Assembly: GCA_031256175.1 (NCBI GenBank)
Contig: JAIRRC010000012.1
Location: forward strand, 914-64,913
Source of the DNA: Rickettsiales bacterium
GTDB lineage: Bacteria > Pseudomonadota > Alphaproteobacteria > Rs-D84
DNA length: 64,000 bases
Reading direction: 5' to 3'
Position numbers and translations under genes: made by a program. Shown one piece after another: positions 1,423-57,815 of the stretch (its first letter is position 1; every line of letters begins with the position of its first letter). The notes beneath the pieces were generated by a model. The model did no database searches, was not told the DNA's origin, and was given only the letters and a program-made list of their open reading frames with translations.

Positions 1423-1430
1423 GTTGAAAC

Positions 1431-1462
1431 TAGCTCCCCCCTTGCGGGGGAGTTGTTTTTTT
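1431..1462 (+). terminator. Rho-independent terminator; member of the AACTCCCCC..GGGGGAGTT hairpin family
   Basis: gctcccccc-ttgc-gggggagttg stem-loop followed by TTTTTTT, immediately after the pyrE stop. Confidence 0.7.
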
Positions 1463-3476
1463 ACACGAACAGGTCTTTCACGAACTTCGCGTTTTCGGTT
1501 ATGAACTTGAATCGGAACTCGGGCTTTTTGCCCATAAGGTTCGCGACCAATAATTTCGTCTTTTCCGCGTCCTCGTGGCCTTCTTCGGTTTTGGGCGGAA
1601 GCTCCACGCGGATAAGTTTCCGCGTTTTGGGATTCATGGTCGTGTCTTTCAGCTGCGCCGCCATCATTTCGCCAAGGCCCTTGAAGCGCGACACTTCCAG
1701 CTTTTTATTCTTGTATTTTCCGGCTTTCAGCTCTTCCAATTCCTCGTCGCTGGCGACATAGACCGATTCGTTGCCCGCGGACAATTTATAAAGCGGCGGG
1801 CATGACAGATACAAATGTCCGTCCTCTATCATCCCGGGCATGTATTGATAGAAGAACGTCATTAGCAAAGACGCTATGTGCGAGCCGTCGACGTCCGCGT
1901 CGGTCATGATGATTATCTTTTCATAGCGGAGTTTTTCCTCGTCGTAATTTTCGCGCGTGCCGCAGCCCAGCGTTTCAATCAAATCGTTCAGTTCCTTGTT
2001 GTTGTCGAACTTCTCGTCGCTGCCGGTAAGCACGTTCAGGATTTTTCCGCGCAAAGGCAGTATCGCCTGGGTTTCGCGGACGCGCGCCTGTTTGGCGGTG
2101 CCGCCGGCGCTCTCGCCTTCGACTATGAACAATTCCGTGCCGTCTATATGGTGCTTGGCGCAGTCGGCAAGCTTGCTTGGAAGGCGCAGTTTTTTCGAAG
2201 GCGTTTTCCGCGCTATGTCCTTCGCCTTTCTTATCTTTATGCGCGCCTCGGCCAGCTGGTTCGCGAATGCGAGCAGGGCGTTCGAAGTCTTCGGGTCCGA
2301 GCCCAGGAACAAATCGAACGGGTCGCGGATTGCGTTCTCTATATATTTGACCACTTCGGGATTCGAAAGCTTTTCCTTCGTCTGGCCCAGGAACTGCGGC
2401 GTCTTATAGAACAATGACACGATGGCGCAGGCGGAATCGAAGACGTCTTCGGCCATGATGATGTCGCCCGCCTTGTCGCCGACCTTTTGCGCATAGTTTT
2501 TAAGCCCGCGCGTTATGGCGGACTTGAAGCCGCTTTCATGCGTGCCGCCGTCCGTCGTCGCGATGGTGTTGCAGTACGAGTTCAGGAATCCGTCGTCGCT
2601 TGCCGCGCCGTTTTCGTCGGTCAGCCATGTTATTGCGAATTCGACCTTGCCGGAATCGTCCGGGAACGGAATACTGCCCGAGAACATTTTCGGCGTAAGC
2701 TTCGTCTTGCCTTCCGTGTTCTGTTCCAAGAAGTCCGACACGCCGTGCGGGAAATAGAATTCCGCCTGGGCCGGTATGCCCATGTCTTCGGTTATAAGGC
2801 TTGGATTGCAGTTCCAGAATATCCTGACGCCCTTGGACAAAAAGGCTTTCGCCCGCGCCCGGCGGTAAAGTTTCACGGGCTTGAAGGCGGCGCCCTCGCC
2901 GAATATCTGCGTGTCGATTGTGAAGCGGACGGATGTTCCCGTTTCCTTTGTCGACTCGCCCTTTTCTATATGGCCGACCGCTTTTCCGCGCTTGAACTTC
3001 ATGGTCCAGATATGGCCGCCCTTCGCGACCCGGACTATCGTTTCGGACGACAGCGCGTTGACGACGGAAGAACCGACGCCGTGCAGTCCGCCCGATGTCT
3101 TGTAATTGCTGTTGTCGAATTTGCCGCCCGAATGAAGCGTCGTGAATATGATTTCAAGCGCCGATTTGCCCGGATATTTGGGATGCTCGTCCACCGGTAT
3201 TCCGCGGCCGTTGTCCACGATTTCTATCGTGCGCGCGTCTATAAGGTTGACTTCGATTCTGTCCGCGAAGCCGGCGACCACTTCGTCTATGGAATTGTCC
3301 AGGATTTCGGTCGGGAGATGGTGCCAGGCCTTCTCGTCCGTGCCGCCTATATACATTCCGGGGCGAAGCCGGACGGGTTCCAGCCCTTCCAGAACCTGTA
3401 TGTCCGCCGCCGAATAAGATTTGTTGATTTCCTTGGTCATGTTGGGGATATTAACGATTTTTCCCCTTGCGCGCAA
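1461..3476 (-). CDS. parE: Type IIA topoisomerase ATPase subunit B; the 671-aa length favours topoisomerase IV ParE over GyrB
   Basis: GHKL ATPase N-domain, Toprim region with the EGDSA-like motif (EGESAGG) and PLRGKILN motif. It lacks the ~170-aa insertion of proteobacterial GyrB. Confidence 0.8.
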   Translation of the reverse strand: MRARGKIVNIPNMTKEINKSYSAADIQVLEGLEPVRLRPGMYIGGTDEKAWHHLPTEILDNSIDEVVAGFADRIEVNLIDARTIEIVDNGRGIPVDEHPKYPGKSALEIIFTTLHSGGKFDNSNYKTSGGLHGVGSSVVNALSSETIVRVAKGGHIWTMKFKRGKAVGHIEKGESTKETGTSVRFTIDTQIFGEGAAFKPVKLYRRARAKAFLSKGVRIFWNCNPSLITEDMGIPAQAEFYFPHGVSDFLEQNTEGKTKLTPKMFSGSIPFPDDSGKVEFAITWLTDENGAASDDGFLNSYCNTIATTDGGTHESGFKSAITRGLKNYAQKVGDKAGDIIMAEDVFDSACAIVSLFYKTPQFLGQTKEKLSNPEVVKYIENAIRDPFDLFLGSDPKTSNALLAFANQLAEARIKIRKAKDIARKTPSKKLRLPSKLADCAKHHIDGTELFIVEGESAGGTAKQARVRETQAILPLRGKILNVLTGSDEKFDNNKELNDLIETLGCGTRENYDEEKLRYEKIIIMTDADVDGSHIASLLMTFFYQYMPGMIEDGHLYLSCPPLYKLSAGNESVYVASDEELEELKAGKYKNKKLEVSRFKGLGEMMAAQLKDTTMNPKTRKLIRVELPPKTEEGHEDAEKTKLLVANLMGKKPEFRFKFITENAKFVKDLFV

Positions 3477-3520: not shown

Positions 3521-4642
3521 ATGGAATTTTCAGTTTTTCGCCAAGTCCTTATAAAGGCCATCGGACACATGCAGTCTATTGTGGAGCGGCGCGCCCCGCT
3601 GCCTATCATGATGAATATCAAGATAGAGGCGAAGGAAGACCTTGTCATGACCGCCGCCAACGTCGACCTGGAACTGGTCGAGCGCGTAAAGGCCGATATT
3701 ACCCTTCCGGGCAAAATAACCATCCCGGTTCATCTTCTTTATGACATTCTTCGGAAATTGCCCGAAGAAGCCGAAATCAAATTCAAGCAGGCGAACGAGC
3801 AGCAGCTTATAGTGTCCAGCGGCAAGGCGAAATTCACTTTGTCGACCCTGTCGGCCGACAGCTTCCCGAGCATGGGCGCCGCCAACCTCTCCACCAAATT
3901 CACCATGACGACCGGCGAGCTGGCCCATATGATTGACAAGACCAAATTCGCGATTCCATCCGACGACACCCGCTATCATTTGGCCGGCATATTCTTCCAT
4001 ATAACCGAAGAAGGCGGCAAGAAGATGCTGACATCTGTCGCGACCGATTCTCAGCGCATGGCGGTTTGCACCGCGCTCGCGCCCGCAGGCAGCGAAAATA
4101 TGCCGAGCGTCATTCTGCCGCGCAGAAGCATTGCCGAGCTTTCGAAGCTGCTTGCCGACGCCGATGTCGACGATGTCGTGGTCGAATTGTCCGAAACCAA
4201 GGCGCGCTTCACTTTCGGAAGCGCCGTCCTTACGACGAAATTAATCGACGCCCAGTATCCGAACTATCGCGTGGTTATCCCAAAGAACAACGACAAGCTC
4301 GCGGTTTTCGGAAAGGCCCAGTTCGTCGAGATGATTGACCGCGTTTCCGTCACCAGCACCGAGCGGACGAAATCCGTCATCCTCAATTTCTCGGCCGGGA
4401 AGCTTGTCGCGAACACCTCGACGCCCGAATCCGGCGCCGCGGTCGAGGAAATGGACGTGGAATATAATAATGACGAGCAGTTCCAGATTGTCTTCAATGT
4501 CCGCTTCCTGCTTGACATCGCGACGCAAATCGACGCGGACAAGATGCAGATTGCCATGATGGATTCGCTGTCCCCGACGATTATGCAGGGGCGCGAAAAG
4601 GAAACCGACTGCCTGTTCGTCCTTATGCCGCAACGCATATAA
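3521..4642 (+). CDS. dnaN: DNA polymerase III beta sliding clamp
   Basis: 373 aa with the three-domain clamp pattern. N-terminus MEFSVFRQVLIKAIGHMQSIVERR and C-terminal CLFVLMPQRI are typical of DnaN. Confidence 0.93.
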   Translation: MEFSVFRQVLIKAIGHMQSIVERRAPLPIMMNIKIEAKEDLVMTAANVDLELVERVKADITLPGKITIPVHLLYDILRKLPEEAEIKFKQANEQQLIVSSGKAKFTLSTLSADSFPSMGAANLSTKFTMTTGELAHMIDKTKFAIPSDDTRYHLAGIFFHITEEGGKKMLTSVATDSQRMAVCTALAPAGSENMPSVILPRRSIAELSKLLADADVDDVVVELSETKARFTFGSAVLTTKLIDAQYPNYRVVIPKNNDKLAVFGKAQFVEMIDRVSVTSTERTKSVILNFSAGKLVANTSTPESGAAVEEMDVEYNNDEQFQIVFNVRFLLDIATQIDADKMQIAMMDSLSPTIMQGREKETDCLFVLMPQRI

Positions 4643-4653
4643 ACCTATAATAA

Positions 4654-4708
4654 CCCCGCCCGGCGAAGCGAATAGAACAGCGAAGCCGGGCGGGCTTGAT
4701 TTTTTTTA
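4654..4708 (+). terminator. Rho-independent terminator after dnaN
   Basis: GC-rich inverted repeat ccccgcccggcg...cgaagccgggcggg followed by TTTTTTTT. Confidence 0.7.
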
Positions 4709-4743
4709 TTCGTCCCCTATATCACCATTAAAAAGGATAGACG

Positions 4744-5832
4744 ATGTCGTCGCAGCGCGATTTTTACGAAATTTTGGGCGTCCAAAAGGGCGCGGGTGAA
4801 AGCGATATAAAAAAGGCCTATCACAAGCTTGTCATGAAATACCATCCGGATAAAAATCCCGGCGACAAGGACGCGGAAGCCAAATTCAAGGAAATCAGCA
4901 ATGCTTATGACATCCTGCGCGACCCGCAGAAAAAGGCGGCTTACGACCAGTTCGGGCATTCCGCGTTCCAGGGCGGACAAGGGTTCGGCGGCGGCGCGGG
5001 CGGCAATCCTTTCGGCGGTTTCGATTTCGGCGGCGCGGGATTTTCAGGCGGCTTCGGCGATATGTTCGAGGACATATTCAACCAGATGGGATTCGGCGGC
5101 CGCCGCGCGCAGCCGAGGCAGGCCGACAATTCCGGCCGCGACCTTCTGCATGAAGTAAGGATAACTTTGGCCGAAGCCTTCGCCGGAAAGAATGTCGAAG
5201 TGAAATTCCAAACGAACGCGGCGTGCGAAAAATGCGGCGGCAAAGGCGGCGAGAATGTGAAGACTTGTCCGACTTGCGGCGGCAGCGGAAGCGTCCGCAG
5301 GTCGAACGGATTTTTCGCGGCGGAAACCGCGTGCCACGACTGCGGCGGCTTCGGAAAAAAGCCCGATAAAAAGTGCTCCGCTTGCGGCGGCACGGGCGCG
5401 AAGCGCGCGGCCAAAACCATCGAAGTCAAAATCCCCGCGGGCGTCGAAACCGGCGCGCGTCTGCGGCTTTCCGGGCAAGGCGAGGCGGGCGCGTTCGGCG
5501 CGCCGAGCGGCGATTTATACGTCGATATAATCGTTTTGAAGGACCCGCATTTCTCTCGCGACGGGTCGGATTTGTTAATCAATTTATCGGTGCCTTTCGC
5601 GACTTTGGCGCTGGGCGGAAGCGTCGATGTTTCGGGCGTCGACGGCAAGAATATCGAAGTCAAAATTCCTGCCGGAACCCAGGTCGGAACCAAGCTTCGC
5701 GTGAAGGGAAACGGCATGCCCGAACTTGGCCGCGCGTCGTCCCGCGGCGACCTTTACATAAACGTCATGACCCAAATCCCGACCCGTCTTTCGTCGAAAC
5801 AGAAAAAGCTTCTTGAAGAGTTCGCATCCTAA
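4744..5832 (+). CDS. dnaJ: Chaperone DnaJ
   Basis: J-domain with HPD (YHPDKNP), G/F-rich linker, four CxxCxGxG zinc-finger repeats, and a C-terminal substrate-binding domain. Confidence 0.95.
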   Translation: MSSQRDFYEILGVQKGAGESDIKKAYHKLVMKYHPDKNPGDKDAEAKFKEISNAYDILRDPQKKAAYDQFGHSAFQGGQGFGGGAGGNPFGGFDFGGAGFSGGFGDMFEDIFNQMGFGGRRAQPRQADNSGRDLLHEVRITLAEAFAGKNVEVKFQTNAACEKCGGKGGENVKTCPTCGGSGSVRRSNGFFAAETACHDCGGFGKKPDKKCSACGGTGAKRAAKTIEVKIPAGVETGARLRLSGQGEAGAFGAPSGDLYVDIIVLKDPHFSRDGSDLLINLSVPFATLALGGSVDVSGVDGKNIEVKIPAGTQVGTKLRVKGNGMPELGRASSRGDLYINVMTQIPTRLSSKQKKLLEEFAS

Positions 5833-5833
5833 A

Positions 5834-5870
5834 AACAACTCGACGGCGATTGCGGGGGAGTTGTTTTATT
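5834..5870 (+). terminator. Terminator after dnaJ; degenerate copy of the GGGGGAGTT hairpin family
   Basis: aacaactc...gcgggggagttgtt stem followed by TTTTATT. Confidence 0.55.
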
Positions 5871-5940
5871 AATTGAAATATATTCCTACTTGTGATAAAA
5901 TGTCTTAGTCAACAGGACAAATTCAAAAAAGGACTAGAAA

Positions 5941-6330
5941 ATGAATAAGAAAATATTCCTTGCCGTCGGCCTGACGCTGGCAAGCGCCGCCGCTTTCGCC
6001 GCCCCGCTTAAATTTTTCAAGGGTCTTTCTTGGACCAAATCCGCGGCTTCCCCGTTCGTCTTCGCGGAAAACACCAATCCGGCCGCGCGCGACCAGATGG
6101 TCAAATTCGACAAAATTCTTTCCCAATGCGGCGTGAAATTGGTTTATGCCCGCGCGAACGACGGCATGAAGATAGAGCTGGACGGCATAGGTTCCTTCAA
6201 ATACGACGACAATTTCGCGAATGGAAAAGTCGCGCTTGTGGCGTCGGCCAGGACGCCTTCGCTCTGCCCGAACGGCATCGGCCTGGCCATCGGGGACGAG
6301 GACGCCAACGTCCGCTGGACCGCCCAGTAA
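5941..6330 (+). CDS. Small secreted protein of unknown function (Sec signal peptide)
   Basis: N-terminal MNKKIFLAVGLTLASAAAFAAP signal peptide with an AFA-AP cleavage site. No prepilin G/xxxxE motif, so it is not the pilin of the downstream cluster. A terminator follows at 6335-6361. Confidence 0.5.
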   Translation: MNKKIFLAVGLTLASAAAFAAPLKFFKGLSWTKSAASPFVFAENTNPAARDQMVKFDKILSQCGVKLVYARANDGMKIELDGIGSFKYDDNFANGKVALVASARTPSLCPNGIGLAIGDEDANVRWTAQ

Positions 6331-6377
6331 AAATAAATCCCCCGAAAGGGGGATTTTTCATATGAATTTTATTTTTT

Positions 6378-6422
6378 CGGGGTCCCCATAAAACCGCCCC
6401 GGCACGGGTTGGTTTTATGGGG
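6378..6422. repeat. 45-nt palindromic element CCCCATAAAACC-GCCCCGGCACGGG-TTGGTTTTATGGGG (copy 1 of 2)
   Basis: Perfect 12-bp outer inverted repeat. A second copy at 45811-45856 carries compensatory substitutions. This copy lies ~75 nt upstream of the first pilus-cluster gene. Confidence 0.7.
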
Positions 6423-6495
6423 AAATTCCCTTGCTAGCCGGCGGGCTATTTGTTATAATTTAGGGAAGTATTAGGGGAAGAAAAGGAAATCGATT

Positions 6496-7344
6496 ATGAT
6501 TCAAAGAATTATGCTCGGCATTTTGGCCGTTTTCACGCTTTTTCCGGCGCACGCCGCGTTCGACCAGAGCGACCCTTCGGGCCTTGTCTGGCAAAGCCCC
6601 GACTGGGGTCCGGATACCGGCTGGGGCCCCGAGCCTTCGCTGGACAAGGTGAACAACATGTATCGGTCGGAAAGGCCGGTTATAAAATCGCGTCCATTCG
6701 GCGTCAATAATTCCACTTACCGCGAGCCGGGGCTTAAAGTGAACCACGCCATAACGGGCGAGGGATGGGGCGGCCAATACAGCTTCTCGGGTGGGGCGGA
6801 CCTTATGCACGGCAACAATGCGCCCGCCGGATTCAATGATAATTCCAAAGCGAAAATGCCGCTTCTGACCCAGGAAATGATAGAGGACGACGGCGGCGCC
6901 GCGCTTGTCATGTCCGTAAGCGACAGGAAATACAACGACAAAAAAGACGCGGGCGACGGCGTCATGATTGACGGCGGCGACACCGGCGGCGGGCTTTTCG
7001 CCAGCGCGGCCGACCTGTCGGGCAAAGCCGCCGACAAGGCCCAGATTGCGCCGGTCGGCGCGGGCGCCGACGTGGTCCGCAGCTGGGTCGTCGTAAGCGG
7101 CAAGACGCTGAGGCAAGTTTTGGAGGAATGGGCCCAGGCCGCCGGATGGGAGCTTGTATGGAACACTTCGCGCGAATATCCCGTCGCGGCCAGCGCCGTT
7201 TTCGAAGGCAGGTTCATGGACGTGTCCAGCGCCCTGGTCAGGAATTTCAGCCGCGCGAATCCGGTTCCGTATGCCAGGTTCTACAAGGGGAACAAGGTGC
7301 TGGTCGTAAGCACCTTGGATGAAGGGGAGAATAATGGCCATTAG
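6496..7344 (+). CDS. Periplasmic pilus-assembly protein with a C-terminal TcpQ/STN-like domain (putative secretin partner or pilotin-like protein)
   Basis: Sec signal peptide. The C-terminal ~80 aa (KTLRQVLEEWAQAAGWELVWNTSREYPVAASAVFEGRFMDVSSALVRNFSRANPVPYARFYKGNKVLVV) matches the STN/TcpQ-type fold pattern. First gene of the pilus operon. Confidence 0.45.
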   Translation: MIQRIMLGILAVFTLFPAHAAFDQSDPSGLVWQSPDWGPDTGWGPEPSLDKVNNMYRSERPVIKSRPFGVNNSTYREPGLKVNHAITGEGWGGQYSFSGGADLMHGNNAPAGFNDNSKAKMPLLTQEMIEDDGGAALVMSVSDRKYNDKKDAGDGVMIDGGDTGGGLFASAADLSGKAADKAQIAPVGAGADVVRSWVVVSGKTLRQVLEEWAQAAGWELVWNTSREYPVAASAVFEGRFMDVSSALVRNFSRANPVPYARFYKGNKVLVVSTLDEGENNGH

Positions 7345-8887
7345 AAAATACGTGCTTATGGCATGTATTTTTTCGGCGGCGGCGCTTGGCGCCGCCTGCA
7401 ATAAAACGCAGTCCGCGAAAGTCGCGGCCGCGGTCGACGACGATTTCGTGAACGCCAGCATAGCGCTGGACAGCACGCGCCAGCCGCAAAGCCGCGTGAC
7501 TTCCGACACCATTTCGGCGTCTGATGGCGTATGGCTGGGCTCGCGCTCGACCGCGGTGCGGCGCGGTTTCGATTTGCCCGCGCGCTTCGAGACCGGAAAC
7601 GGAATCACCATCATCATGGACGAGCCCGCGACGCTTCAACAGCTTTCGAACAGCATATACGAGATAACCGGAATAAACGTATCGATAGACGGGCAGGTTT
7701 CTTCGGAAAAATTGGGCAAGACGATTTCGCTTAGCCATAGCGGAAAATTAAGCGACATGCTGACCCGCGTCGCGACCGATTTGGATTTGCTTTGGCAATA
7801 CGACAGGGAAGACATAGTTTTCTACGAGACCGAAACCAAGACTTACAATCTTTACGCTCTCGGCACCGACATCAGTTTTTCTTCGCGCATATCGACCGAC
7901 GATTCGAATCAGGTTTCGCTTGAATCCAACCTCCGCGAATGGGACGAGATAGAGCGCAGCATAACGGGAATCCTGGACGGCGTGCCGAATGCTAAATTTT
8001 CCGTGTCGCGTTCCTTGGGCACGATTACCCTTACCGCGGGCCCAAGCGTCCAGAAGCGCGTGGCTGGTTATATCTCACGCCAGAACCGCCGCCTGTCCCA
8101 GCAGATTTCGATAGACGTCAAGGTCTTGCAGGTTTCGATTACGAACACCAACGCGGTCGGCCTGAATCTTACCGCCGCGATTTCGAGCGTCGCCGGATTG
8201 CAAATAGCGTCCAACGCTTCGAACAATATCACGGGCGCGTCCGGCCTTAACGTCGCGGTCGCCGAAGGCGCCAGCGGCGCGCTTGCGCCTGCGGCGGGGT
8301 CGAGCGCGCTTATCCAGGCACTGGCGCGCCAGGGCAAGGTGTCGCTTATGACCAACGCTTCGGTCACGACGCGCAACAACCGCGTGGCGCCAGTCAGCAA
8401 CGTCCGCAACACCGGATACATCAAGCGCATAGAATCCCGCACCTTCACCGCGGTCGAAAGTTCGAGCGTCGAGCAGGACACGCTTGAAACCGGATTTTCC
8501 ATGCAGCTGCTTCCGAACATCTTGGACGGCGGCCGCGTTCTTCTGCTTTTCAAGATGTCGCTTCGCGAGCTTATCCGCATGAACACCGAAACCATCGGCG
8601 GCGACAATGGAATCACCATCCAGATGCCCGACGTCGAAGAGCGGTCCTTCATGCAGGAAGTGATTTTGGAAACGGGGCAGATGCTTGTTATCTCGGGCTT
8701 CGAGCGCCAGGCGAACGACGACACGCGCTACGGCGTGGGCGAGGCGGACTTCATGGCGCTTGGCGGCTCGCGCGAGTCGACGTCCCAGCGCGACGTGCTG
8801 GTCGTGATTCTGACGCCGCAGGTGCATGTTTCCCCGATGGATTCCGAAAGGGCGATTATGCGCGAGGTCGGGGCGCCGCTTAATTAA
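7334..8887 (+). CDS. Outer-membrane secretin lipoprotein of the type IVb / R64 PilN / TcpC / BfpB class
   Basis: Lipobox LGAAC after the signal peptide (start taken at MAIRKY; an alternative start lies 15 nt upstream at 7319). C-terminal secretin domain (LMTNASVTTRNNRVAPVSNV...GFSMQLLPNILDGGRVLL). About 520 aa. Confidence 0.75.
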   Translation: MAIRKYVLMACIFSAAALGAACNKTQSAKVAAAVDDDFVNASIALDSTRQPQSRVTSDTISASDGVWLGSRSTAVRRGFDLPARFETGNGITIIMDEPATLQQLSNSIYEITGINVSIDGQVSSEKLGKTISLSHSGKLSDMLTRVATDLDLLWQYDREDIVFYETETKTYNLYALGTDISFSSRISTDDSNQVSLESNLREWDEIERSITGILDGVPNAKFSVSRSLGTITLTAGPSVQKRVAGYISRQNRRLSQQISIDVKVLQVSITNTNAVGLNLTAAISSVAGLQIASNASNNITGASGLNVAVAEGASGALAPAAGSSALIQALARQGKVSLMTNASVTTRNNRVAPVSNVRNTGYIKRIESRTFTAVESSSVEQDTLETGFSMQLLPNILDGGRVLLLFKMSLRELIRMNTETIGGDNGITIQMPDVEERSFMQEVILETGQMLVISGFERQANDDTRYGVGEADFMALGGSRESTSQRDVLVVILTPQVHVSPMDSERAIMREVGAPLN

Positions 8888-8909
8888 ATTCGCAGCAGGG
8901 GGAAATCTT

Positions 8910-10178
8910 TTGACGGCACAGATAGTTTCCGTTTCAAGAAAAAAATACGCGGTCGGGCTTTTCTGGCAGCCCGTCGCCGCCGCGCACGCCGCCAAGGGCG
9001 TCGCCGAAAGAATCTCGAAGTCCGCGCCCCAGGCGAGATTCAGATACTATGCGCAATACAGGAACCTTGTCGGCCTTGGCAGTCCCGCGCTTAAACATTA
9101 TTCGGGCCTGTCCGCGCTTGCGCCCGAAGTCATGGAATCCTTCGGCGACGCGCCTTCCTTCGCCGCGGTTTTCAAGGTCGGCGGCGGATACTGGATGATT
9201 GCCGTCAGGAACGGAATAATCCTGTCCGACCAGGACAGGTTGTTCGCGGTCGAAAAGGACGCGCGCGAGGCATTCGACAAACTATTGCAGCTTCCCGACT
9301 GGTCGCTTAAAGTCGCGCCGGAATCCTGGGGGATAACGGGCGCCCAGGAACGGAATATCGACGACGTCATATCGGGCAAAGTCCGAAGCGCGCTGCGTCC
9401 GATTGGCGAAACTTCCGGCCTTATGTTGAAGCTGCTTGTTTTCGGCGCCGCCGCGATAGCGCTTGTGTATTTTTTCGAGGCGGACATAAACAGGTTCCTT
9501 TCGCCCGGGCCCGCCGCGTCCCAAATGACCGAGGAATCCGCCCGCTTGTATAAAGAGCAATTGGCGCTTATGAAATCCGACCTGGCCGCGCCTGAAACTA
9601 TTGCGCCGGCGGGTCCCGTCATGCCGTGGGAAACTATTCCGCCGGCGAACGAAGTCGCCGCCCTTTGCACCAAGGCCATCGCCTTCATAATGCAGCCGGT
9701 CTATGGCTGGAACGTCGTTTCCGCCGACTGCGCCAATGGAAAAATCCACGCGGTAATCCGCCGCGACTACGGCACCATCCAGGAATTATACGAAGCGGTC
9801 GGCGGCCTTATGCCCGGCGTGGAAATCAAGACTTCGGGCGCGGGCGGAAGCGATGCGGAATTGTCGGGAACCTGGCCGCTGGCCGCCGCCGTCGCGAATG
9901 CCCCGGCTGAAAACATCGCCGCTGTCGAGCGCCGCGTCCGCAGCGTCTTTCAAATGGCGAACATGCCGGCCGCCATTTCCGTCGGCAAGGAAATCGTCGC
10001 GTCCCAAGGCGGCGATGTCAAAAGGACCGCGGAATATGTCCTTGTCCGCGCCGATTCCAAAATCATGCCGGAAGAATTCATGAAATTCCTTGAAATCCCG
10101 GCCGTCGAATTGCTGTCGGTTTCATGGGACATGGGAAAAAGCCAATGGAGCTATGAGGTGAGGGTGTATGCTTTGTAA
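8910..10178 (+). CDS. Pilus biogenesis protein, R64 PilO-like by position and size (single TM segment)
   Basis: Plausible TTG start at 8910 with RBS cagggggaa, directly after the secretin stop; the ORF track gives an ATG at 8826 that overlaps the secretin. One hydrophobic segment LMLKLLVFGAAAIALVYFF. Size and position match R64 PilO / ICE pilO. Confidence 0.4.
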   Translation: MTAQIVSVSRKKYAVGLFWQPVAAAHAAKGVAERISKSAPQARFRYYAQYRNLVGLGSPALKHYSGLSALAPEVMESFGDAPSFAAVFKVGGGYWMIAVRNGIILSDQDRLFAVEKDAREAFDKLLQLPDWSLKVAPESWGITGAQERNIDDVISGKVRSALRPIGETSGLMLKLLVFGAAAIALVYFFEADINRFLSPGPAASQMTEESARLYKEQLALMKSDLAAPETIAPAGPVMPWETIPPANEVAALCTKAIAFIMQPVYGWNVVSADCANGKIHAVIRRDYGTIQELYEAVGGLMPGVEIKTSGAGGSDAELSGTWPLAAAVANAPAENIAAVERRVRSVFQMANMPAAISVGKEIVASQGGDVKRTAEYVLVRADSKIMPEEFMKFLEIPAVELLSVSWDMGKSQWSYEVRVYAL

Positions 10179-10797
10179 GAAATATTTGATTGCCGCGCTG
10201 CTGTCCGCGCTTGCCGCGCCGGTCTTCGCGGACGATATAAACCTGGACGAATTCGACGCCGAAGGTTCGGTCTTCCTTCGCATAACCGCGCTGGAACAGG
10301 ACAAGGTCCTGATGAGGCTTGAAAAGGAGCGCGCGCAGCTTGCGCTCGACCTAAGCCGCATAGAGGCCGAAAAGTCGCGCCTTGCCGGAAGCGAAAGCGC
10401 GCCCGCGGGCGACGCCTCGGCCGAGCTTGCCGCCCAGTTCGACGAAGAGCGCAGGAAGATGAACGAGGAATTGGAGCGTTTCCGCCGCCAGCTCGACGAA
10501 GTCAAAACCGCGCCGCGCGAACCTGCCGATGCGCCCGCCCGCGCCGCCGATGTCGCCGCGGCTTCGGACGACGGCGAATTCGACATAGCCGACCATTACC
10601 GCCTTGTTCACATAACCGGGACCGAAGGCAATCTTAAAGCCATGGTCGAAATCGTCGCGAACGGCCACAGGCAGCGCGTCGGCGAAGGCCACGCATTCGA
10701 CGGATTCGTCGTGCAGGGAATTTCAAGCGGCGATGGCGTTCGGCTGGAGCGGGACGGCGAAGTCTTCCAGCTTCGCATGGTGAACGCCGCGAGATAA
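10168..10797 (+). CDS. Pilus biogenesis protein, PilP-like (signal peptide, coiled coil, C-terminal beta domain)
   Basis: Signal peptide MLCKKYLIAALLSALAAPVFA, a coiled-coil stretch, and a C-terminal HR-like beta domain YRLVHITGTEGNLKAMVEIVANGHRQRVGEGHAFDGFVVQGI. The start overlaps the previous gene by 11 nt. Confidence 0.4.
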   Translation: MLCKKYLIAALLSALAAPVFADDINLDEFDAEGSVFLRITALEQDKVLMRLEKERAQLALDLSRIEAEKSRLAGSESAPAGDASAELAAQFDEERRKMNEELERFRRQLDEVKTAPREPADAPARAADVAAASDDGEFDIADHYRLVHITGTEGNLKAMVEIVANGHRQRVGEGHAFDGFVVQGISSGDGVRLERDGEVFQLRMVNAAR

Positions 10798-10824
10798 AAT
10801 AACGCCATAAGTGGGAGAGAGCGA

Positions 10825-12450
10825 GTGGCAATATCGGCTAAGAACATCATAAGGGATATGAAGGAATCCGTGCCTGCGCGCATGGCGGATTCCGATTCGA
10901 AAAAAATCGTGGAATATCTTTTTTCCGAAGGCAACCAATTGCTGACGGGATTCCGCGGGCGGCTCGAACTGCCCAAAGACACCCAGAATTTGATAGCTTA
11001 TTTTTCCGGCGGCGAATTGATAATTTCGCGCACGCACAGATACGACGGCCGCGTGCTTGCCTTCGTTTCATTGGCCCAGCGCGAAAATCTTCCCCTTAAA
11101 GAGCCGTTTTACAGCGACATGGGCCTGCTGTCCGCCATATACAAGCAGGGCGAGGGCGCTTCGGGCGCCGCCGCGAAATCCCGCCTTGACTACGACAACC
11201 AGATGCAAAAGGACTTCGTCGACATAGTCGCCAAGGCCGCTAGCGCGAAAGTGTCCGACATACATATCGAAGTCGCGAACCATACGACCATATATTTCCG
11301 GAAAGACGGCGGAATGCAGACCATGCTTGAATACAGCGCCGCCTGGGGCGAAAGCTTCATCCGCGCGGCCTTCGCAAGCGCCGACATATCGAGCAGCAAC
11401 TATGCCAAGAACGAATACCAAAGCGCGCAAAAAGACGGCAGGACCCCGCTTCGCGGAACCAAGGATTTATATCTTCCCGCCGGGGTCCTCGGCATCCGCA
11501 TGCAGTTCAATCCAATCGCTTTCGGCTCGCGCTATGTGGTCATGCGCCTTCTTTACGAGAACCCGAGCGAAGGCATTCGGATAGAGCAGGAATTCACCGA
11601 TTTCGAGCAGCGCCTGTTGGCGCGCCTGCGTTCCTTCCCGACCGGCCTTGTGATAGTCGCGGGCCCGACGTCCAGCGGTAAATCGACCACGCTTTTCCAG
11701 AACATGACCATGATGCTGGGCGAGCGCGACTATGAAATAAACTTGATAACCGTCGAAGACCCGGCGGAAAGAAAAATCTTCGGCAGTCGCCAGATGCCGG
11801 TCGTGAACGCCACGACCGAGGAAGCCCGCGACGAAAAATTCACCGAAGCCTTGGCCGCCGCTTTGCGAAGCGACCCGGACGTCCTGATGGTCGGCGAAAT
11901 CCGCACGCTTAGCGCGGCCGAGCTTACCTTGAAGGGCGCGCTTTCGGGACATTCCGTCTGGACGACGCTTCATGCGAATTCCGCGATAGGCGCGCTTAAC
12001 CGCCTTATCGACATGGGCGTCGAGGCCTTCAAACTTAAAGACGAAACCATGATGCGCGGCCTTATGTCCATGCGCCTGTTCAAGCAGCTTTGCCCGCACT
12101 GCAAGGAACCATTGGCGCGTCATCCCGAGCTTGCCGTTCATGCGCGCGCCCTGGATTATTTCGGCGAAACCGGACTTGCGCAGATTTTCATCCGCGGCCA
12201 TGGGTGCGAGCAATGCGGCGGCAAGGGCACCATCGGCCGCGTCAAAGCGGGCGAAATCGTTCTGTGCGACGGAAAAATTTTAGAGCTTGTCGCCAAGGGA
12301 AGCAAACTGGAAGCCCAGGATTATTGGCTGAACGCTTTGGGCGGGCGCACGCTTAAAGAAGCCGCCGGCGAGCTTATGCTTAAAGGCCGCGTCGGCGCGG
12401 ACGAGCTTGAACGCTGGGTCGGCCTTATAGACCAGCCGGGGATTTACTGA
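10825..12450 (+). CDS. Type II/IV secretion-system ATPase (GspE/PilB/TcpT/R64 PilQ family)
   Basis: GTG start with RBS gggagagag. Walker A GPTSSGKST, Asp box, Walker B DPDVLMVGEIR, His box GHSVWTTLHANSA, and the tetracysteine motif CPHC...CEQC. Confidence 0.9.
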   Translation: MAISAKNIIRDMKESVPARMADSDSKKIVEYLFSEGNQLLTGFRGRLELPKDTQNLIAYFSGGELIISRTHRYDGRVLAFVSLAQRENLPLKEPFYSDMGLLSAIYKQGEGASGAAAKSRLDYDNQMQKDFVDIVAKAASAKVSDIHIEVANHTTIYFRKDGGMQTMLEYSAAWGESFIRAAFASADISSSNYAKNEYQSAQKDGRTPLRGTKDLYLPAGVLGIRMQFNPIAFGSRYVVMRLLYENPSEGIRIEQEFTDFEQRLLARLRSFPTGLVIVAGPTSSGKSTTLFQNMTMMLGERDYEINLITVEDPAERKIFGSRQMPVVNATTEEARDEKFTEALAAALRSDPDVLMVGEIRTLSAAELTLKGALSGHSVWTTLHANSAIGALNRLIDMGVEAFKLKDETMMRGLMSMRLFKQLCPHCKEPLARHPELAVHARALDYFGETGLAQIFIRGHGCEQCGGKGTIGRVKAGEIVLCDGKILELVAKGSKLEAQDYWLNALGGRTLKEAAGELMLKGRVGADELERWVGLIDQPGIY

Positions 12451-13523
12451 TGGCGACCAAGCTCGATATAATTTATTCGAAAATCATGTTCCGGTTCGAT
12501 ACGGCGAAGCGCCTTAACGCGTATCGGAAATTGTCGTCGCTGCTTCGGAACGATTTCACCTTGATTGAATCGTTGGACCGGCTTGTCGCGATAGAAAGCC
12601 GCGAGGGGAAAAAACCCAGCGAGCCCTTCGCCGTCGCTTACGCCGACTGGCAGGCCAAGCTGGAACGCGGATACACTTTTTCCGAAGCCATATCCGGCTG
12701 GGCGCCCGAGATAGAAGTCCTTATGCTTTCGGCGTCCGACATTTCGAAGCTTTGGGTCGCGCTTGAAAACGCCGTCAGGGTGGTCGAGGGCGGAAATAAA
12801 ATCAGCGGCGCGTTGGTGTCGGCGCTTTCCTATCCTTTGTTTTTGCTGGCCGCGACATTCGCGATAGTCGTCATGGTCGGGACGTATTTACTGCCGCCCA
12901 TGCTGGAAGCCGCGGGCAGGGACGTCATATGGCGCGGCGCCGCGCGCACCCTTGTAAGCGTGTCGGAATTCTTCGGCGCGAACTGGATTGTCATGGCGGG
13001 CGGGCTTGTCGGCGCCGCGGCATTGATTGCGTTTTCCATGCCGGTTATGCGCGGTCGCCTGCGGACCATGCTGGACAATATTCCGCCCTGGTCGCTTTAT
13101 AAGATTTCCGCAAGCGCCGGCTGGCTGGTGAGTCTTGCGTCGCTTATCAAGGCGGGCGCGACATTGCCCGAAGCGCTTAAAATGATGTCGCAGAATTCGA
13201 ACGGCTATCTGGCCGATGTGTCGGACAAGGCGCTTAACAATGTTATCGCCGGGCACAATCTCGGCGACGCTTTGGACGCCGCAGGTTTGCATTTCCCGAA
13301 CGATGAAATCATAGGCGATTTGAAAATCTATGCGGACATGGACGAATTCGACAAGAACCTTATGAATGTCGCGACTGAATACATGGATAATTCCGTCAAA
13401 AGCATAGAAACGACGGCGAACCTTTTGAATTCGATAGGCGTGCTTCTGATTTCGGTCGTCATAGCGTGGGTCGTCTTCGGCACCTTCGAAATGCAGGACC
13501 AAGTCGCCGCCGCTATCAGCTGA
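12450..13523 (+). CDS. Inner-membrane platform protein (GspF/PilC/TcpE/R64 PilR family)
   Basis: 357 aa with three hydrophobic segments in the GspF-like arrangement. The start overlaps the ATPase stop (TGATG). Confidence 0.7.
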   Translation: MATKLDIIYSKIMFRFDTAKRLNAYRKLSSLLRNDFTLIESLDRLVAIESREGKKPSEPFAVAYADWQAKLERGYTFSEAISGWAPEIEVLMLSASDISKLWVALENAVRVVEGGNKISGALVSALSYPLFLLAATFAIVVMVGTYLLPPMLEAAGRDVIWRGAARTLVSVSEFFGANWIVMAGGLVGAAALIAFSMPVMRGRLRTMLDNIPPWSLYKISASAGWLVSLASLIKAGATLPEALKMMSQNSNGYLADVSDKALNNVIAGHNLGDALDAAGLHFPNDEIIGDLKIYADMDEFDKNLMNVATEYMDNSVKSIETTANLLNSIGVLLISVVIAWVVFGTFEMQDQVAAAIS

Positions 13524-18030: not shown

Positions 18031-18036
18031 TCCATT

Positions 18037-18062
18037 GTCATTCCGACCTTCGTCGGAATGAC
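18037..18062. repeat. Palindromic element GTCATTCCGAC-CTTC-GTCGGAATGAC (family copy)
   Basis: Perfect 11-bp inverted repeat. A 23-nt identical core recurs at 33459-33481, and related copies lie at 41613-41636 and 45123-45146. Confidence 0.75.
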
Positions 18063-18162
18063 TAGGGTGGTTTGTTAGGCGCAAGCGGCCGGGAATGGCG
18101 GACGAATTCATACCTATCGAAAAAAATTTCCTTGCATATATAATGCGGGCAGAGGTGATGCC

Positions 18163-32047: not shown

Positions 32048-32051
32048 TAAA

Positions 32052-32086
32052 AAAACTCCCCCCTTGCGGGAGAGTTGTTTTATTAC
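32052..32086. terminator. Bidirectional terminator hairpin of the AACTCCCCCC..GGGAGAGTT family
   Basis: A-run, aaactcccccc-ttgc-gggagagttg, T-run. It lies between convergent genes. Confidence 0.7.
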
Positions 32087-33366: not shown

Positions 33367-33455
33367 GCAAGGATTGTATCTTAAATCGGCCGGGCGGGTC
33401 AATGGCAAAATAGTTGCATTCGGGGCGCCGTCGGCGTATAATGAATATACGATTT

Positions 33456-33481
33456 GAGATTCCGACCTTCGTCGGAATGAC
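33456..33481. repeat. Palindromic element ..ATTCCGACCTTCGTCGGAATGAC (family copy)
   Basis: 23-nt identity with the 18037-18062 copy. Confidence 0.7.
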
Positions 33482-33490
33482 AAGGAAAAA

Positions 33491-41612: not shown

Positions 41613-41636
41613 GTCATGCTGGCGCAGGCCAGCATC
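41613..41636. repeat. Palindromic element GTCATGCTGGC-GCAG-GCCAGCATC (variant of the GTCATNCCGAC family with compensatory stem changes)
   Basis: Same outer GTCATGC..GCATC as the 45123 copy, with the inner stem exchanged (ctggc/gccag versus ccgac/gtcgg). Followed by a terminator hairpin and element C. Confidence 0.65.
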
Positions 41637-41648
41637 CAGTTATAGAGC

Positions 41649-41676
41649 GTCGGCCGGAAGGCCGACTTCTTTTTTA
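41649..41676 (+). terminator. Rho-independent terminator after the 542-aa gene
   Basis: gtcggcc-ggaa-ggccgac followed by TTCTTTTTT. Confidence 0.7.
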
Positions 41677-44577: not shown

Positions 44578-45117
44578 ATGCAGAAGATTTTAACCGCCGC
44601 TTTCGCGGTTTTTATGGCGACCAACGCTTTCGCTACGACCGAACCGGCCGATGTGAAATTCCCTGTGAAGGGATTTTGGAAAACGATAGACGACAAGACG
44701 GGCAATGCGAAATCCATCGTGCGCTTGTATGATTGCGGAGAAAATCTTTGCGGCCGCATAGTCGCGATTTTCAATGTCGAGGGAACCGCCGTCGCCGAAA
44801 CATTGTCCGCGCCGGTGAAGGTCGCCGAAGACGTGAAGGGCAAGCCCAAAATGGTCGGCCTTGATATAATCTGGGACATGGAATGGAACGGAACCGAATG
44901 GAAGGGCGGAAAAATCCTGGACCCGAAATCGGGCAGCGTTTATTCGTCCGTCATTTGGCAGACCAAGGAAGACGTCGACTTCAACCAGCTTCAAGTCCGC
45001 GGGAAAATCGGCCCATTCGGCCGCACCCAGATGTGGAACGCGATGGAAGTGAAGGAACTTCCGAAAGATTTGCAAAAAATCGACGTGTCCGTTTGGACGC
45101 CGGTTATTGTGAAATAA
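44578..45117 (+). CDS. Secreted DUF2147-family protein
   Basis: Signal peptide, then GFWKTIDDKTGNAKSIVRLYDCGENLCGRIVAI matching the DUF2147 signature (GxWxxxDDKTGxxKSxVxIYxxxxxLxGKIV). Confidence 0.6.
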   Translation: MQKILTAAFAVFMATNAFATTEPADVKFPVKGFWKTIDDKTGNAKSIVRLYDCGENLCGRIVAIFNVEGTAVAETLSAPVKVAEDVKGKPKMVGLDIIWDMEWNGTEWKGGKILDPKSGSVYSSVIWQTKEDVDFNQLQVRGKIGPFGRTQMWNAMEVKELPKDLQKIDVSVWTPVIVK

Positions 45118-45122
45118 AAATT

Positions 45123-45146
45123 GTCATGCCGACGGAGGTCGGCATC
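45123..45146. repeat. Palindromic element GTCATGCCGAC-GGAG-GTCGGCATC (family copy)
   Basis: 10-bp stem. Followed by a 45-nt AT-rich palindrome (TCAAATTGT...ACAATTTGA) and element C. Confidence 0.7.
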
Positions 45147-45191
45147 TCAAATTGTAAATATCCTTATAATAATGAATTATACAATTTGAGA

Positions 45192-45215
45192 CCCTGACCT
45201 TAGTCAGGGTGACGA
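45192..45215. repeat. Palindromic element CCCTGAC-CTTA-GTCAGGGTGACG (element C copy)
   Basis: See 41682-41705. Confidence 0.65.
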
Positions 45216-45221
45216 ATTAAA

Positions 45222-45812
45222 TTATATCGGTTTGCTGATGAATTTATTTCCCTTTATGACGAACCGCCAGGGAAGCGCGGCGTCTTTGCCCGCATAATCG
45301 ACGCCGATTCTTTTTCCGCTGGCCGCCGGAAATTTTTTCGGCGACGCTTCCAGCCAAATCACAGCGCCTTCCAAATCTTCGCCGTTGTGCTTCCGCGTTA
45401 TCCCAAGCGCTTGCGTCAGTTTCGCCGGCCCGTTGCAAAGGTTTTTTTCGTCCCGGATTTTTCTGCGCGCCTTCATCGTTTCCAATCCGTCAATCGGTTC
45501 CAAAGCGCGAATCAATATCGCGTTCGCTTCGCCGGCTTTGCTTATCACGACATTCATCATATGGTGCATTCCATAGACGAAATAGACGTATGCGAATCCG
45601 CCCGGGCCGAACATGACCGCGTTGCGCGGAGTTTTCCCGCGCCATGCATGGCAGGCCTTGTCGCCGCGTCCCGTATATAGTTCCAATTCCACTATGCGCC
45701 CGCTGGTCGGTTTTCCGCCGATGTTCGAATGCAATGTCGCGCCCAGCAAATTTTTCGCTACATGAAACGGGTCCTTCAAAAATTCGGATTTTTTTATTTT
45801 CATTTTTCCCAT
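45222..45812 (-). CDS. mpg: DNA-3-methyladenine glycosylase, Mpg/AAG family
   Basis: HVAKNLLGATL...RIVELELYTG...GGFAYVYFVYGMHHMMNVV is the AAG-family core. Start taken at MGKMKIKK. Confidence 0.8.
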   Translation of the reverse strand: MGKMKIKKSEFLKDPFHVAKNLLGATLHSNIGGKPTSGRIVELELYTGRGDKACHAWRGKTPRNAVMFGPGGFAYVYFVYGMHHMMNVVISKAGEANAILIRALEPIDGLETMKARRKIRDEKNLCNGPAKLTQALGITRKHNGEDLEGAVIWLEASPKKFPAASGKRIGVDYAGKDAALPWRFVIKGNKFISKPI

Positions 45813-45856
45813 GGGTCCCCGCAAACCCGCCCGGAACGGGTTGGGTTTGTGGGGCG
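45811..45856. repeat. 45-nt palindromic element CCCCGCAAACCC-GCCCGGAACGGG-TTGGGTTTGTGGGG (copy 2 of 2)
   Basis: Homologous to 6378-6422 with paired compensatory substitutions (T.A to C.G, A.T to C.G, one G.T wobble). It abuts the mpg start on the minus strand. Confidence 0.7.
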
Positions 45857-46094
45857 TGATTCCTATTGAGAGGATGGCCGCGCCGCGCTAAGATTTCAAG
45901 GCAAAAAAGGAGCGCCTATGTCCTTCAAGGAAATAATGGAAATTGTCGCATTGACCATGACGATTACCATATCGTCCTTCGCGCTGCTTGGAATTTTCGC
46001 CGCGCACAAAAAAGGATTCTTCAAGTCCGTCCACACCATCGTCGACTATTACCGCGAATTCATAGAGCGCGAGAAAAAGCCGCGCGGCCGCCGC

Positions 46095-47423
46095 TTATCT
46101 TGAATACGAGAACGTCCCGTTGACGCCGGATATTATGACAGACGGCTTGTCGCTTCCGTTGTGCGCGACCTCGCCGATTATTTTGGACGCGACATTGTAT
46201 CGCATGGCTATGTTCTGGATTTTCTCGGCGGTTTTTTCGTCCTCGACATAAATCTCGAATCCGCATCCCATGTTGAAGTCTTCATACATTCCCTTCCACT
46301 GCGCGCCCGTTTCGGCCTGGATAAGCCCGAAAAGCGCGGGCATGTCGAACAGGTTGTCTTTTATTATCGTCATCGGCCGGGACAGATAGTTCAGGACTTT
46401 CGTCATGCCTCCGCCGCTGTTGTGCACCATGCCCTTGATTTTCCTGTTTCCGATTTCCCTGTATATGTCCCTGCATATCGGCGCATAGGTGCGCGTCGGC
46501 GACAGGGCCAGTTTTCCGAAGGGAATCTGCTCGTCCGTTTCGACCTTTATCAAGTCGGTTAGTTTTTTCGTTCCGTTGTATGCGTTTTCGCCGATTCCGA
46601 CGAATACGTTTTCGATGTGTTTTTCCAAATCGTTTTGAAGGGCGGTCGGAATCCTGTAATTTTTTCTCATGATTTCTTTAAGCTCTTTGATGTGGAGCAT
46701 TCCGAATCCGCCGTTGTATGTTTCCGGATATTTCCATCGGTATTCGGGATGGATAAGGTCGTGCCGCATTCTTGTGTATCCGTTGCTGCGCGCGCCGCCG
46801 TTGTAGGAATCTTCATAGGTCGCCTGCCCGTGCGAGGCCAGTCCCACGACTTTCTGCCCCGGCGCGATGTTTCCATTATTGATGACGTCGCGTTTTTTCA
46901 TGCGGCAGTGCATCGCGTTGTTGATTAGGATTGTAGGCGTCAGGTCCGGGACGTCGGCGGTCTCGCCGCATTGGCCGTTTATGTTTATGCCGAAAAGCCG
47001 CATGGTGTGAAGGAAATAATTCTCGCCGTTTATAAGTTCGGCCAGGACTTCGCCCGGTATCCTTTTCGTATTGCGGTCTATGTTGGACGTCAGATGAAGC
47101 TCGCCCGCGATTCCGCCCGCGCAAAGTATGTCGTCTAGGTTCATGACTATCGAATCCTGAACCACCCCGTGCCATACGGATATGTCGCCGGTTTCCTTCC
47201 AATACATATAGGCCAGGGCGGCTTTGGTTCCGGCGCCGTCCGAAGAATTTATGGATACCAAAGGATTTATCCAGTCGGCTATGCGTCCGAAGAAACCGCC
47301 GCGCGGGGCGGGATTGATTTTGCAGAATGCTTTCGGGAAAAGCCCCTTGTCATTGTCCTTTGTCGCCGCATGGACTTCGGGCTTGGACGAGGATACGTCG
47401 TATTTTTCATAGTCTTTGGACAT
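46095..47423 (-). CDS. AIR-synthase-related (PurM-like fold) protein, atypically long at 442 aa
   Basis: N-domain motif NSSDGAGTKAALAYMYWKETGDISVWHGVVQDSIVMNLDDILCAGG parallels PurM's SGTDGVGTK...DLVAMCVNDL. About 80-90 aa longer than canonical PurM. Confidence 0.5.
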   Translation of the reverse strand: MSKDYEKYDVSSSKPEVHAATKDNDKGLFPKAFCKINPAPRGGFFGRIADWINPLVSINSSDGAGTKAALAYMYWKETGDISVWHGVVQDSIVMNLDDILCAGGIAGELHLTSNIDRNTKRIPGEVLAELINGENYFLHTMRLFGININGQCGETADVPDLTPTILINNAMHCRMKKRDVINNGNIAPGQKVVGLASHGQATYEDSYNGGARSNGYTRMRHDLIHPEYRWKYPETYNGGFGMLHIKELKEIMRKNYRIPTALQNDLEKHIENVFVGIGENAYNGTKKLTDLIKVETDEQIPFGKLALSPTRTYAPICRDIYREIGNRKIKGMVHNSGGGMTKVLNYLSRPMTIIKDNLFDMPALFGLIQAETGAQWKGMYEDFNMGCGFEIYVEDEKTAEKIQNIAMRYNVASKIIGEVAHNGSDKPSVIISGVNGTFSYSR

Positions 47424-47484
47424 GGGAAACTCCTATAAAGTTTGCCCCTCTCCGTCCCTTGGACCAAGGCTACACCTAGAATAT

Positions 47485-47940: not shown

Positions 47941-47949
47941 TTTTAATTC

Positions 47950-47971: not shown

Positions 47972-47984
47972 GCACGAGCGAATA

Positions 47985-57811: not shown

Positions 57812-57815
57812 AAAT

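Follow-up and report, generated by a model that had tools for sequence, protein, structure and literature searches.

The two hairpins lie at a pilus locus and at the mpg locus

Two copies of a long hairpin are present in the stretch of DNA analysed here (the window, 64 kb), and both are found unchanged in the independent Logan assemblies L001 and L048 of the same organism. Copy 1 lies between two plus-strand units, a gene for a 129-aa protein upstream and a type IVb pilus operon (TcpQ, secretin, PilO, T2SSE and T2SSF) downstream. The 129-aa gene has its own intrinsic terminator (TCCCCCGAAAGGGGGA followed by TTTTT, 6338-6357, hairpin 6338-6352, plus strand) about 25 nt before copy 1, while the strong sigma-70 type promoter of the pilus operon, TTGCTA-17-TATAAT with a TG extension (6431-6459, plus strand), starts 8 nt 3' of the copy and is not part of it. 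The hairpin ends 73 nt ahead of the operon ATG, in good agreement with an earlier note on this DNA, which had placed it about 75 nt upstream of the pilus-cluster start on the plus strand. The pilus operon is chromosomal (3521-13523) and directly follows dnaN-dnaJ syntenically in all relatives (L043, L045 and L047). Upstream of dnaN there is a phage-type integrase gene, immediately so in L045 and at a distance of a few kb, past gyrB, in L043.

Copy 2 is located between the start of mpg, on the minus strand, and the plus-strand promoter of a small ORF of 61 aa. The mpg product matches the Pfam family Pur_DNA_glyco (E=7e-66). Two candidate start codons, ATG 45812-45810 and ATG 45803-45801 (both minus strand), place the hairpin 4 and 13 nt upstream, respectively. 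The statement of the earlier note that copy 2 abuts the mpg start is thus correct for the first of them, but it is ATG 45803 that is chosen by gene callers and conserved in relatives; an exact look-up of the 196-aa Mpg translated from ATG 45812 found it not on record. On the other side, the promoter of the small ORF (TTGAGA-17-TAAGAT, 45866-45894, plus strand) begins 11 nt 3' of copy 2 and, again, does not belong to the element. The ORF itself (45918-46103, plus strand) encodes a conserved small membrane protein of 60-61 aa (L038 9762-9944 in a relative) with one hydrophobic helix, a strong RBS and no Pfam family. It runs divergently from mpg and shares a convergent overlap with the 3' end of a gene for a 442-aa protein. 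That gene (46095-47423, no Pfam match) lies between ogt (47485-48057) and mpg in a minus-strand cluster (45222-48057) which is also present in L038 and is probably a DNA-alkylation repair operon.

Both copies share a nested stem and differ by mirrored substitutions

The complete unit extends over 6380-6428 in copy 1 and over 45813-45860 in copy 2, on the plus strand in both cases, and the hairpin proper occupies 6384-6422 (39 nt) and 45817-45854 (38 nt). The sequences quoted in the earlier note are indeed found in the window and its approximate location of the hairpin holds, but its coordinates are a few bases off and the hairpin is 39 nt long, not 45. Each copy consists of an unpaired GGGT tag (6380-6383 and 45813-45816), a 12-bp outer stem, a small internal loop, an inner stem and a short tail (AAATTC in copy 1, CGTGAT in copy 2). 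The outer arms are CCCCATAAAACC/GGTTTTATGGGG in copy 1 (6384-6395 and 6411-6422) and CCCCGCAAACCC/GGGTTTGTGGGG in copy 2 (45817-45828 and 45843-45854, with one G.T pair), which confirms the 12-bp outer stem previously described for copy 1 and extends it to copy 2; the centres of the arms are 27 bp apart. An inner 4-bp stem, CCCG/CGGG, that the earlier note had missed is present in both copies and is closed by a GNA triloop, GCA in copy 1 (stem 6398-6401 and 6405-6408) and GAA in copy 2.

The outer stems differ at three positions. Position 6 changes from T-A in copy 1 to C-G in copy 2 and position 10 from A-T to C-G, both compensated on both sides, whereas position 5 is A-T in copy 1 and a G.T wobble in copy 2. 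Tabulation of the pairs thus bore out the two full compensations and one wobble noticed before. On the plus strand the predicted folding energy is -33 kcal/mol per copy (z about -4), and the two hairpins are among the strongest of the window in a generic hairpin census, the criteria of which are very permissive. Either strand folds stably (-26 to -33 kcal/mol); on the mpg-sense strand of copy 2 the G.T pair becomes an A.C mismatch and the energy is only -25.6 kcal/mol.

It might be tempting to take such paired changes as a sign of selection at the level of RNA or of a bound protein. However, template switching at quasipalindromes can produce mirrored "compensatory" changes in DNA by mutation as well, and the compensations alone therefore do not point to selection of this kind.

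Members of the family in other genomes

A 20-base degenerate pattern, CCCCNNAAANCCGCCCN{5,8}GGGTTGG, was used to scan a collection of 185,579 species-representative genomes (GTDB), which apparently does not include the source genome. Seven loci were returned, six of them being chance matches without the 3' arm. The remaining one is a third full copy, located at L003 7200-7248 in the MAG "Rickettsiales bacterium Cyl330_bin36". It reads GGGC-CCCCATAAACCC-GCCCTTTTATGGGT-TGGGTTTATGGGG-AAATTT, with a perfect stem (12/12 bp) which may be called "recombinant", as it carries the A and T of copy 1 at positions 5-6 and the C-G of copy 2 at position 10. This copy starts 5 nt past the rpsO stop codon, ahead of pnp, is inverted relative to transcription and is not followed by a promoter. 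A homology search with the PNPase N-terminus for relatives of this spacer gave only partial proteins of about 70% identity.

Within the window, blastn-short aligned just 25 nt of copy 2 (E=0.035), and a structure-aware leave-one-out model was needed to show significance. When a covariance model was made from copy 1 and the L003 copy only, copy 2 scored 44 bits (E=5e-11), the next unrelated match in the window scoring 11 bits, so that the match between the copies is not due to chance. Copy 1 scored 73 bits by covariance model.

Model searches of about 210 kb from seven relatives (samples of 15-41 kb each) produced no match or one match per sample; besides the L003 copy, ascertained by the pattern, there was one short candidate, at L045 17412-17443. 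It reads GGGTCCCCGCGAAC-TT-GTTCGTGGGG-TGTGGAT, has no inner hairpin, shows the same G.T wobble as copy 2 and contains an extra compensated pair at position 7 (A-T to G-C). As MAFFT misaligned it, its stem pairs were tabulated by hand and by script. Its E value is 3e-4 with a model that includes copy 2 and 0.16 with a model that does not, and we tentatively regard it, on its sequence, as a probable member of the family. The variant is sited downstream of T2SSF, within the loop of a REP of the CGTC type, the palindrome TGTC-ATTCCCGC...GCGGGAAT. Indeed, L045 17395-17460 is a set of nested palindromes, with the short GGGT hairpin in the loop of the TGTC-ATTCCCGC/GCGGGAAT repeat, an arrangement suggesting that the variant entered an extruded hairpin at its single-stranded loop.

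The tags of the four members are GGGT, GGGT, GGGC and GGGT. Pairing of the stem is kept throughout, with double compensation at positions 6, 7 and 10. All four are intergenic (only about 9% of the window is intergenic by crude gene calling), and they occupy four non-homologous sites, namely the spacer between the 129-aa gene and tcpQ, the mpg/small-ORF spacer, the rpsO-pnp spacer and the region downstream of T2SSF. With respect to the local transcript, two of them are sense and two antisense. The 64-kb window has two copies, and all members are singletons, in that the model detected no second copy within kilobases of any of them. A looser GC-rich pattern applied to metagenome and viral collections returned no members, only poly-C/poly-G assembly junk and unrelated hairpins, and a BLAST comparison of the element with plasmids gave no match. 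The family is apparently phylogenetically narrow and low-copy.

The hairpin is absent from orthologous sites whose flanks and promoters are conserved

The nearest relatives of the source organism are uncultured "Rickettsiales/Alphaproteobacteria" MAGs, recovered from a JGI and SRA sample series. In the closest of them, JGI Ga0466699 (Mpg 78% and TcpQ 69% identical), both loci lie on one 126-kb contig in the same gene order.

At the pilus site, the hairpin is absent from L043/L044, L047 and L045, relatives of increasing distance, all of which keep the order dnaN-dnaJ-(129 aa)-tcpQ as well as the promoter, conserved in three relatives as CCTTGCW-17-TGTTATAAT. The intergenic region measures 115 nt in L043 and 165 nt in the window. 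In the relatives the -35 hexamer directly adjoins a T-rich tract, whereas in the window the element is wedged between this tract, TTTTATTTTTTCG, and the -35.

The mpg site gives the same picture. L038, in which Mpg is 78% identical, has the synteny ogt/442-aa gene/small ORF/mpg/DUF2147 and retains the mpg start codon and the promoter, RBS and reading frame of the small ORF, the promoter being conserved as TTGAGG-17-TAAAAT without the hairpin. Its empty site reads TTATTTTCAT directly followed by TCCTATTGAGG-17-TAAAAT and, further on, AAAAGGAGCGGTTATG; at the junction of TTATTTTCAT and TCCTATTGAGG the window has about 57 extra nt with the hairpin, and the whole intergenic region is 56 nt in L038 versus 114 nt in the window. 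The bases ATTCC follow both copies, and those after copy 2 belong to the native flank, as they are present at the L038 empty site.

At both loci, filled and empty sites thus differ by clean indels of 50-58 nt with flanking genes and promoters retained. Since the promoters are conserved without the hairpin in relatives, they are older than, and independent of, it. To judge from these alignments, the hairpin behaves as an insertion/deletion unit. No clear direct repeat that could represent a target-site duplication was seen in the filled/empty comparison at either locus. The left flanks of the two window insertions are similarly T-rich (6365-6379, TTTTATTTTTTCG; 45793-45809, TTTATTTTCAT; the L038 empty site, 10000-10014); judged by sequence composition at two sites, this may reflect a target preference.

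One could also imagine that nothing has moved, and that these are ancient intergenic hairpins (for example, terminators lacking the U-tract) which were lost from relatives by palindrome-stimulated deletion and kept similar by gene conversion. DNA palindromes are indeed prone to deletion, the empty-site relatives are distant (55-78% protein identity), there is one informative relative at the mpg site, and, besides a target duplication, no transposase was found: no Y1_Tnp domain is encoded by 20 mid-size ORFs of the window (less than 5% of the genome covered), and a crude motif scan of the loci examined revealed no ORF with a RAYT-type Y..NP motif. On the other hand, three relatives of different depth are without the hairpin at the pilus site, which would require repeated precise losses. 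Moreover, some dispersal must have taken place, the three to four sites being non-homologous, and one copy is nested in the loop of another REP. We thus consider immobility of the hairpins very unlikely.

Function as an operator is highly improbable

The earlier note had proposed, among other possibilities, a shared operator for a dimeric regulator. A lineage-specific operator or architectural site would be bound by a dimeric or cruciform-binding protein co-regulating the pilus operon, the small ORF and, divergently, mpg. Both window copies do lie 8 and 11 nt upstream of a predicted sigma-70 -35 hexamer, in the same orientation, and ATTCC is among the bases that follow each of them. However, the orthologous promoters in L038, L043/L044, L045 and L047 are conserved without any hairpin, and the ATTCC of copy 2 is native flank. 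The spacing to the -35 differs by 3 bp between the copies, and the arm centres are 27 bp apart. Furthermore, the arms differ at 3 of 12 positions, always in a mirrored fashion, so that it is pairing that is preserved and not a recognition sequence. Finally, the L003 copy follows rpsO in the opposite orientation, with no promoter after it. An operator thus appears highly improbable to us, and this part of the earlier proposal finds no support, although, as the empty-site relatives are distant, a lineage-specific regulatory co-option may be conceivable.

Function as an RNA element is unlikely

A different possibility would be a function at the RNA level, as a leader, an attenuator or an mRNA-stability hairpin (in the 5' UTR of mpg, in read-through transcripts of the 129-aa gene or at the 3' end of rpsO). 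The stability of the fold on either strand would be in line with it, and so would the position of the L003 copy 5 nt past the rpsO stop, where 3' stabilisers or processing sites are classically found, and that of copy 2, 13 nt ahead of the ATG in the mRNA of mpg. It should also be mentioned that REPs, in the published accounts cited below, are often transcribed and active in 3' UTRs. Nevertheless, orientation is mixed among the four members, the G.T pairs of copy 2 and of the L045 variant become A.C mismatches on the mpg-sense strand, the element has neither a U-tract nor an Rfam match, and it is missing from the orthologous UTRs of relatives. Copy 1, moreover, lies after a canonical terminator and before a conserved promoter. 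A leader RNA of the pilus operon, as suggested earlier, is incompatible with a position upstream of the conserved -35/-10, and in the case of mpg the only orientation that puts the hairpin into the 5' UTR is the one with A.C in place of G.T, so that it was probably not selected as an mpg leader. An RNA element in general is thus an unlikely explanation, and RNA effects would be by-products of the insertion rather than the reason for its existence.

Several known classes of hairpin were tried as candidates and rejected. Neither strand has the U-tract of an intrinsic terminator, as AAATTC or CGTGAT follows the hairpin and ACCC follows it on the other strand. The terminator scan called the long hairpin at neither site; the sole terminator-like call over copy 1 (6399-6412, plus strand) is a sub-hairpin of 5 bp in which the 3' arm of the element itself was taken for the "T run". 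In a scan of the window at Rfam 15 gathering thresholds only tRNAs passed, and permissive Rfam scans produced generic hairpin noise in which the two copies had no family in common. An attC site was dismissed because there is no R''/R' core, and a MITE because the element has no TIR or TSD and is, as a whole, one hairpin of less than 60 nt. The oriT of a conjugative element does not fit either, as the pilus cluster is chromosomal and syntenic by dnaN-dnaJ in all relatives, where the hairpin is absent.

Other palindromes of the window and its relatives

Extragenic palindromes of other types abound in the host lineage. The window and its relatives contain numerous members of a second, more abundant family of palindromes, with a C/TGTC tag, an 8-bp stem starting with AT and a loop of 4-5 nt, which fits the CGTC-1 REPs as characterised in the cited part of Di Nocera 2013 (see below). 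In the window it reads TGTC-ATTCCGAC-CTTC-GTCGGAAT, the stem (for example, ATTCCGAC) being followed, after the loop, by ATGAC or ATCTCAAATTG, and it is found at 18035-18066, 33454-33485 and 45121-45152, and also at 41615-41650. In the other genomes it occurs at L003 5879, L043 1915, L045 5771, 8313, 9684, 17499 and 19798, and L047 4814, and is thus common to the source, its relatives and the L003 MAG. At 45113-45223 of the window, two adjacent inverted hairpins of this type fill the spacer between the convergent DUF2147 gene (ending at 45117) and mpg (ending at 45222); the pair looks like a head-to-head REP dimer and may act as a bidirectional terminator too. At L003 6388-6420, a palindrome of this family, GATGCCGGGTCAAGCCCGGCATGAC, lies in frame inside truB (5924-6862) and encodes ...DGMPGQARHDN..., which by its sequence is an RPE-like intragenic REP insertion.

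L003 7252-7300 (plus strand) and L045 17344-17390 have a common motif, CCGC(C/T)TCGCGGC(C)ACCCCTCC-NNNN-GGAGGGGAAT, which adjoins the GGGY-hairpin copy in L003 and lies about 25 nt upstream of the short variant in L045. This ACCCCTCC/GGAGGGGAAT motif may be a further repeat family or a type of terminator. Several gene ends of the window (1427-1464, 32049-32086, 57811-57848 and also 5835-5872) carry intrinsic terminators of a nearly identical sequence, AACTCCCCC-TTGC-GGGGGAGTT with a T-run after it.

A REP-like dispersed insertion probably explains the element

Taken together, the element is probably a small, non-coding palindromic insertion (about 43-57 nt), dispersed and low-copy and resembling a REP. 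It has unrelated intergenic locations in related alphaproteobacterial genomes labelled "Rickettsiales", of which there are at least two and probably three, is present or absent at orthologous sites with conserved flanks and promoters, and its pairing is kept by mirrored substitutions. The third suggestion of the earlier note, a REP-like family, fits best, as we are dealing with a dispersed extragenic palindrome that is polymorphic for presence and absence, in a genome that also has CGTC REPs. The dozens of copies that the earlier note had associated with a plain REP were not seen in the sequence searched, which favours a family of low copy number.

We infer that such an element spreads, or once spread, as a single-stranded DNA hairpin, and that the agent would most plausibly be an HUH/Y1 (RAYT- or IS200-like) enzyme or some other function that acts in trans from elsewhere in the genome. 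The active strand may be the one with GGGY and the G.T wobble; that strand tolerates G.T pairs. The GGGY strand is the plus strand for both window copies, and the plus strand is the G-rich one throughout the window; with two copies, this is a pointer only. The compensations would then reflect that a DNA hairpin is maintained, whether through selection for mobilisation or through template-switch correction of the quasipalindrome, and would be no sign of an RNA or protein-binding function. That the copies lie close to the mpg start and to the promoters of the pilus operon and the small ORF can be understood because short intergenic DNA is the only permissive landing place. On the other hand, both window copies have the same orientation and precede a -35 by 8-11 nt, which speaks against the insertion reading, and this shared placement could be more than coincidence, though there are only two copies. 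The apparently low copy number also counts against it, as does the lack of a transposase, a target-site duplication and REPIN/BIME pairing in the sequence examined.

Side effects of the insertion on neighbouring genes are conceivable. At the pilus promoter, the T-rich upstream tract has been moved about 49 bp from the -35, which might influence its activity; at mpg, a hairpin of -26 kcal/mol stands 13 nt before the ATG in the ogt-442aa-mpg transcript and might affect translation. Influences of this kind, whether on the pilus promoter or on the translation of mpg, would be incidental. In read-through transcripts, the element could serve as a 3'-exonuclease barrier or attenuator, as REPs do.

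A bolder version may also be formulated, in which the element would represent a previously undescribed class of GGGY-tagged long-stem REPs with a nested GNA-loop mini-hairpin and a single-strand DNA transposase or nuclease of its own, inserting by T-rich tracts just upstream of promoters, and in which the two source copies would have been recruited to tune or insulate, at one locus, the type IVb pilus promoter and, at the other, the divergent mpg/small-ORF pair. We find this full scenario quite unlikely.

The reading as a dispersed insertion corrects a first impression. Matched hairpins at these two loci look like a regulatory RNA or an operator linking pilus biogenesis and DNA repair, while comparison with relatives points to a dispersed insertion, and annotators should infer no co-regulation of the pilus operon and mpg from them. 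It also adds a GGGY long-stem family without a known REP tag to an uncultured alphaproteobacterial lineage that has CGTC REPs as well. The clean filled and empty sites provide precise insertion junctions, which could help to identify the mobilising activity.

Comparison with known systems

Like intrinsic terminators, the element is a GC-rich stable hairpin in intergenic DNA downstream of genes; unlike them, it has no T/U tract, and copy 1 follows a canonical terminator while copy 2 is at no plus-strand gene end. With operators of dimeric transcription factors it shares dyad symmetry directly upstream of a -35, but its arms are too long and too far apart, their pairing and not their sequence is conserved, and the element is not conserved together with the promoter and is also found in non-promoter contexts.

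The CGTC-1 REPs of Alphaproteobacteria, equivalent to Neisseria dRS3 and Rickettsia RPE-6, are described in the cited part of Di Nocera 2013 (PMC3733652) as having a C/TGTC tag, an 8-9 bp stem starting with AT and a loop of 4-5 nt. Measured against that description, our element differs, with a CCCC... stem of 12 bp, an inner stem-loop and no CGTC tag. Both types of repeat occur in the same host clade and in the same intergenic regions, a CGTC-like REP being present in the dnaJ-tcpQ spacer of L045 and L047, and, as far as that source goes, no dedicated transposase is known for the CGTC REPs either.

The GTAG-tagged REPs and REPINs are, according to the cited portions of Nunvar 2010 (PMC2817692), Bertels & Rainey 2011 (PMC3116915) and Di Nocera 2013 (PMC3733652), mobilised by RAYT Y1 transposases. 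Here the tag is GGGT or GGGC, with no GTAG or CTAC adjacent to any copy, and the stem is longer (12 bp plus the inner 4 bp). The copies are singletons and not REPIN/BIME doublets, no paired inverted arrangement of that kind having been seen, and no cognate RAYT, which is typically REP-flanked, was found in the sequence examined. Classical REPs usually exceed 100 copies per genome in the cited portion of Nunvar 2010 (PMC2817692), a figure next to which two copies in a 64-kb window lean towards a low-copy family. In other respects the resemblance to REPs is close. A REP is generally a palindrome of about 20-40 bp, and the hairpin of 38-39 nt lies at the upper end of this range; REPs are extragenic and dispersed at non-homologous sites, as is the element at its four sites. 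Like the GTAG REPs in particular, it is a short, imperfect palindrome outside genes, has a conserved tetranucleotide left unpaired at one end, lies at unrelated intergenic sites, mostly between unidirectional genes, is present or absent between relatives, and keeps its pairing through mirrored changes.
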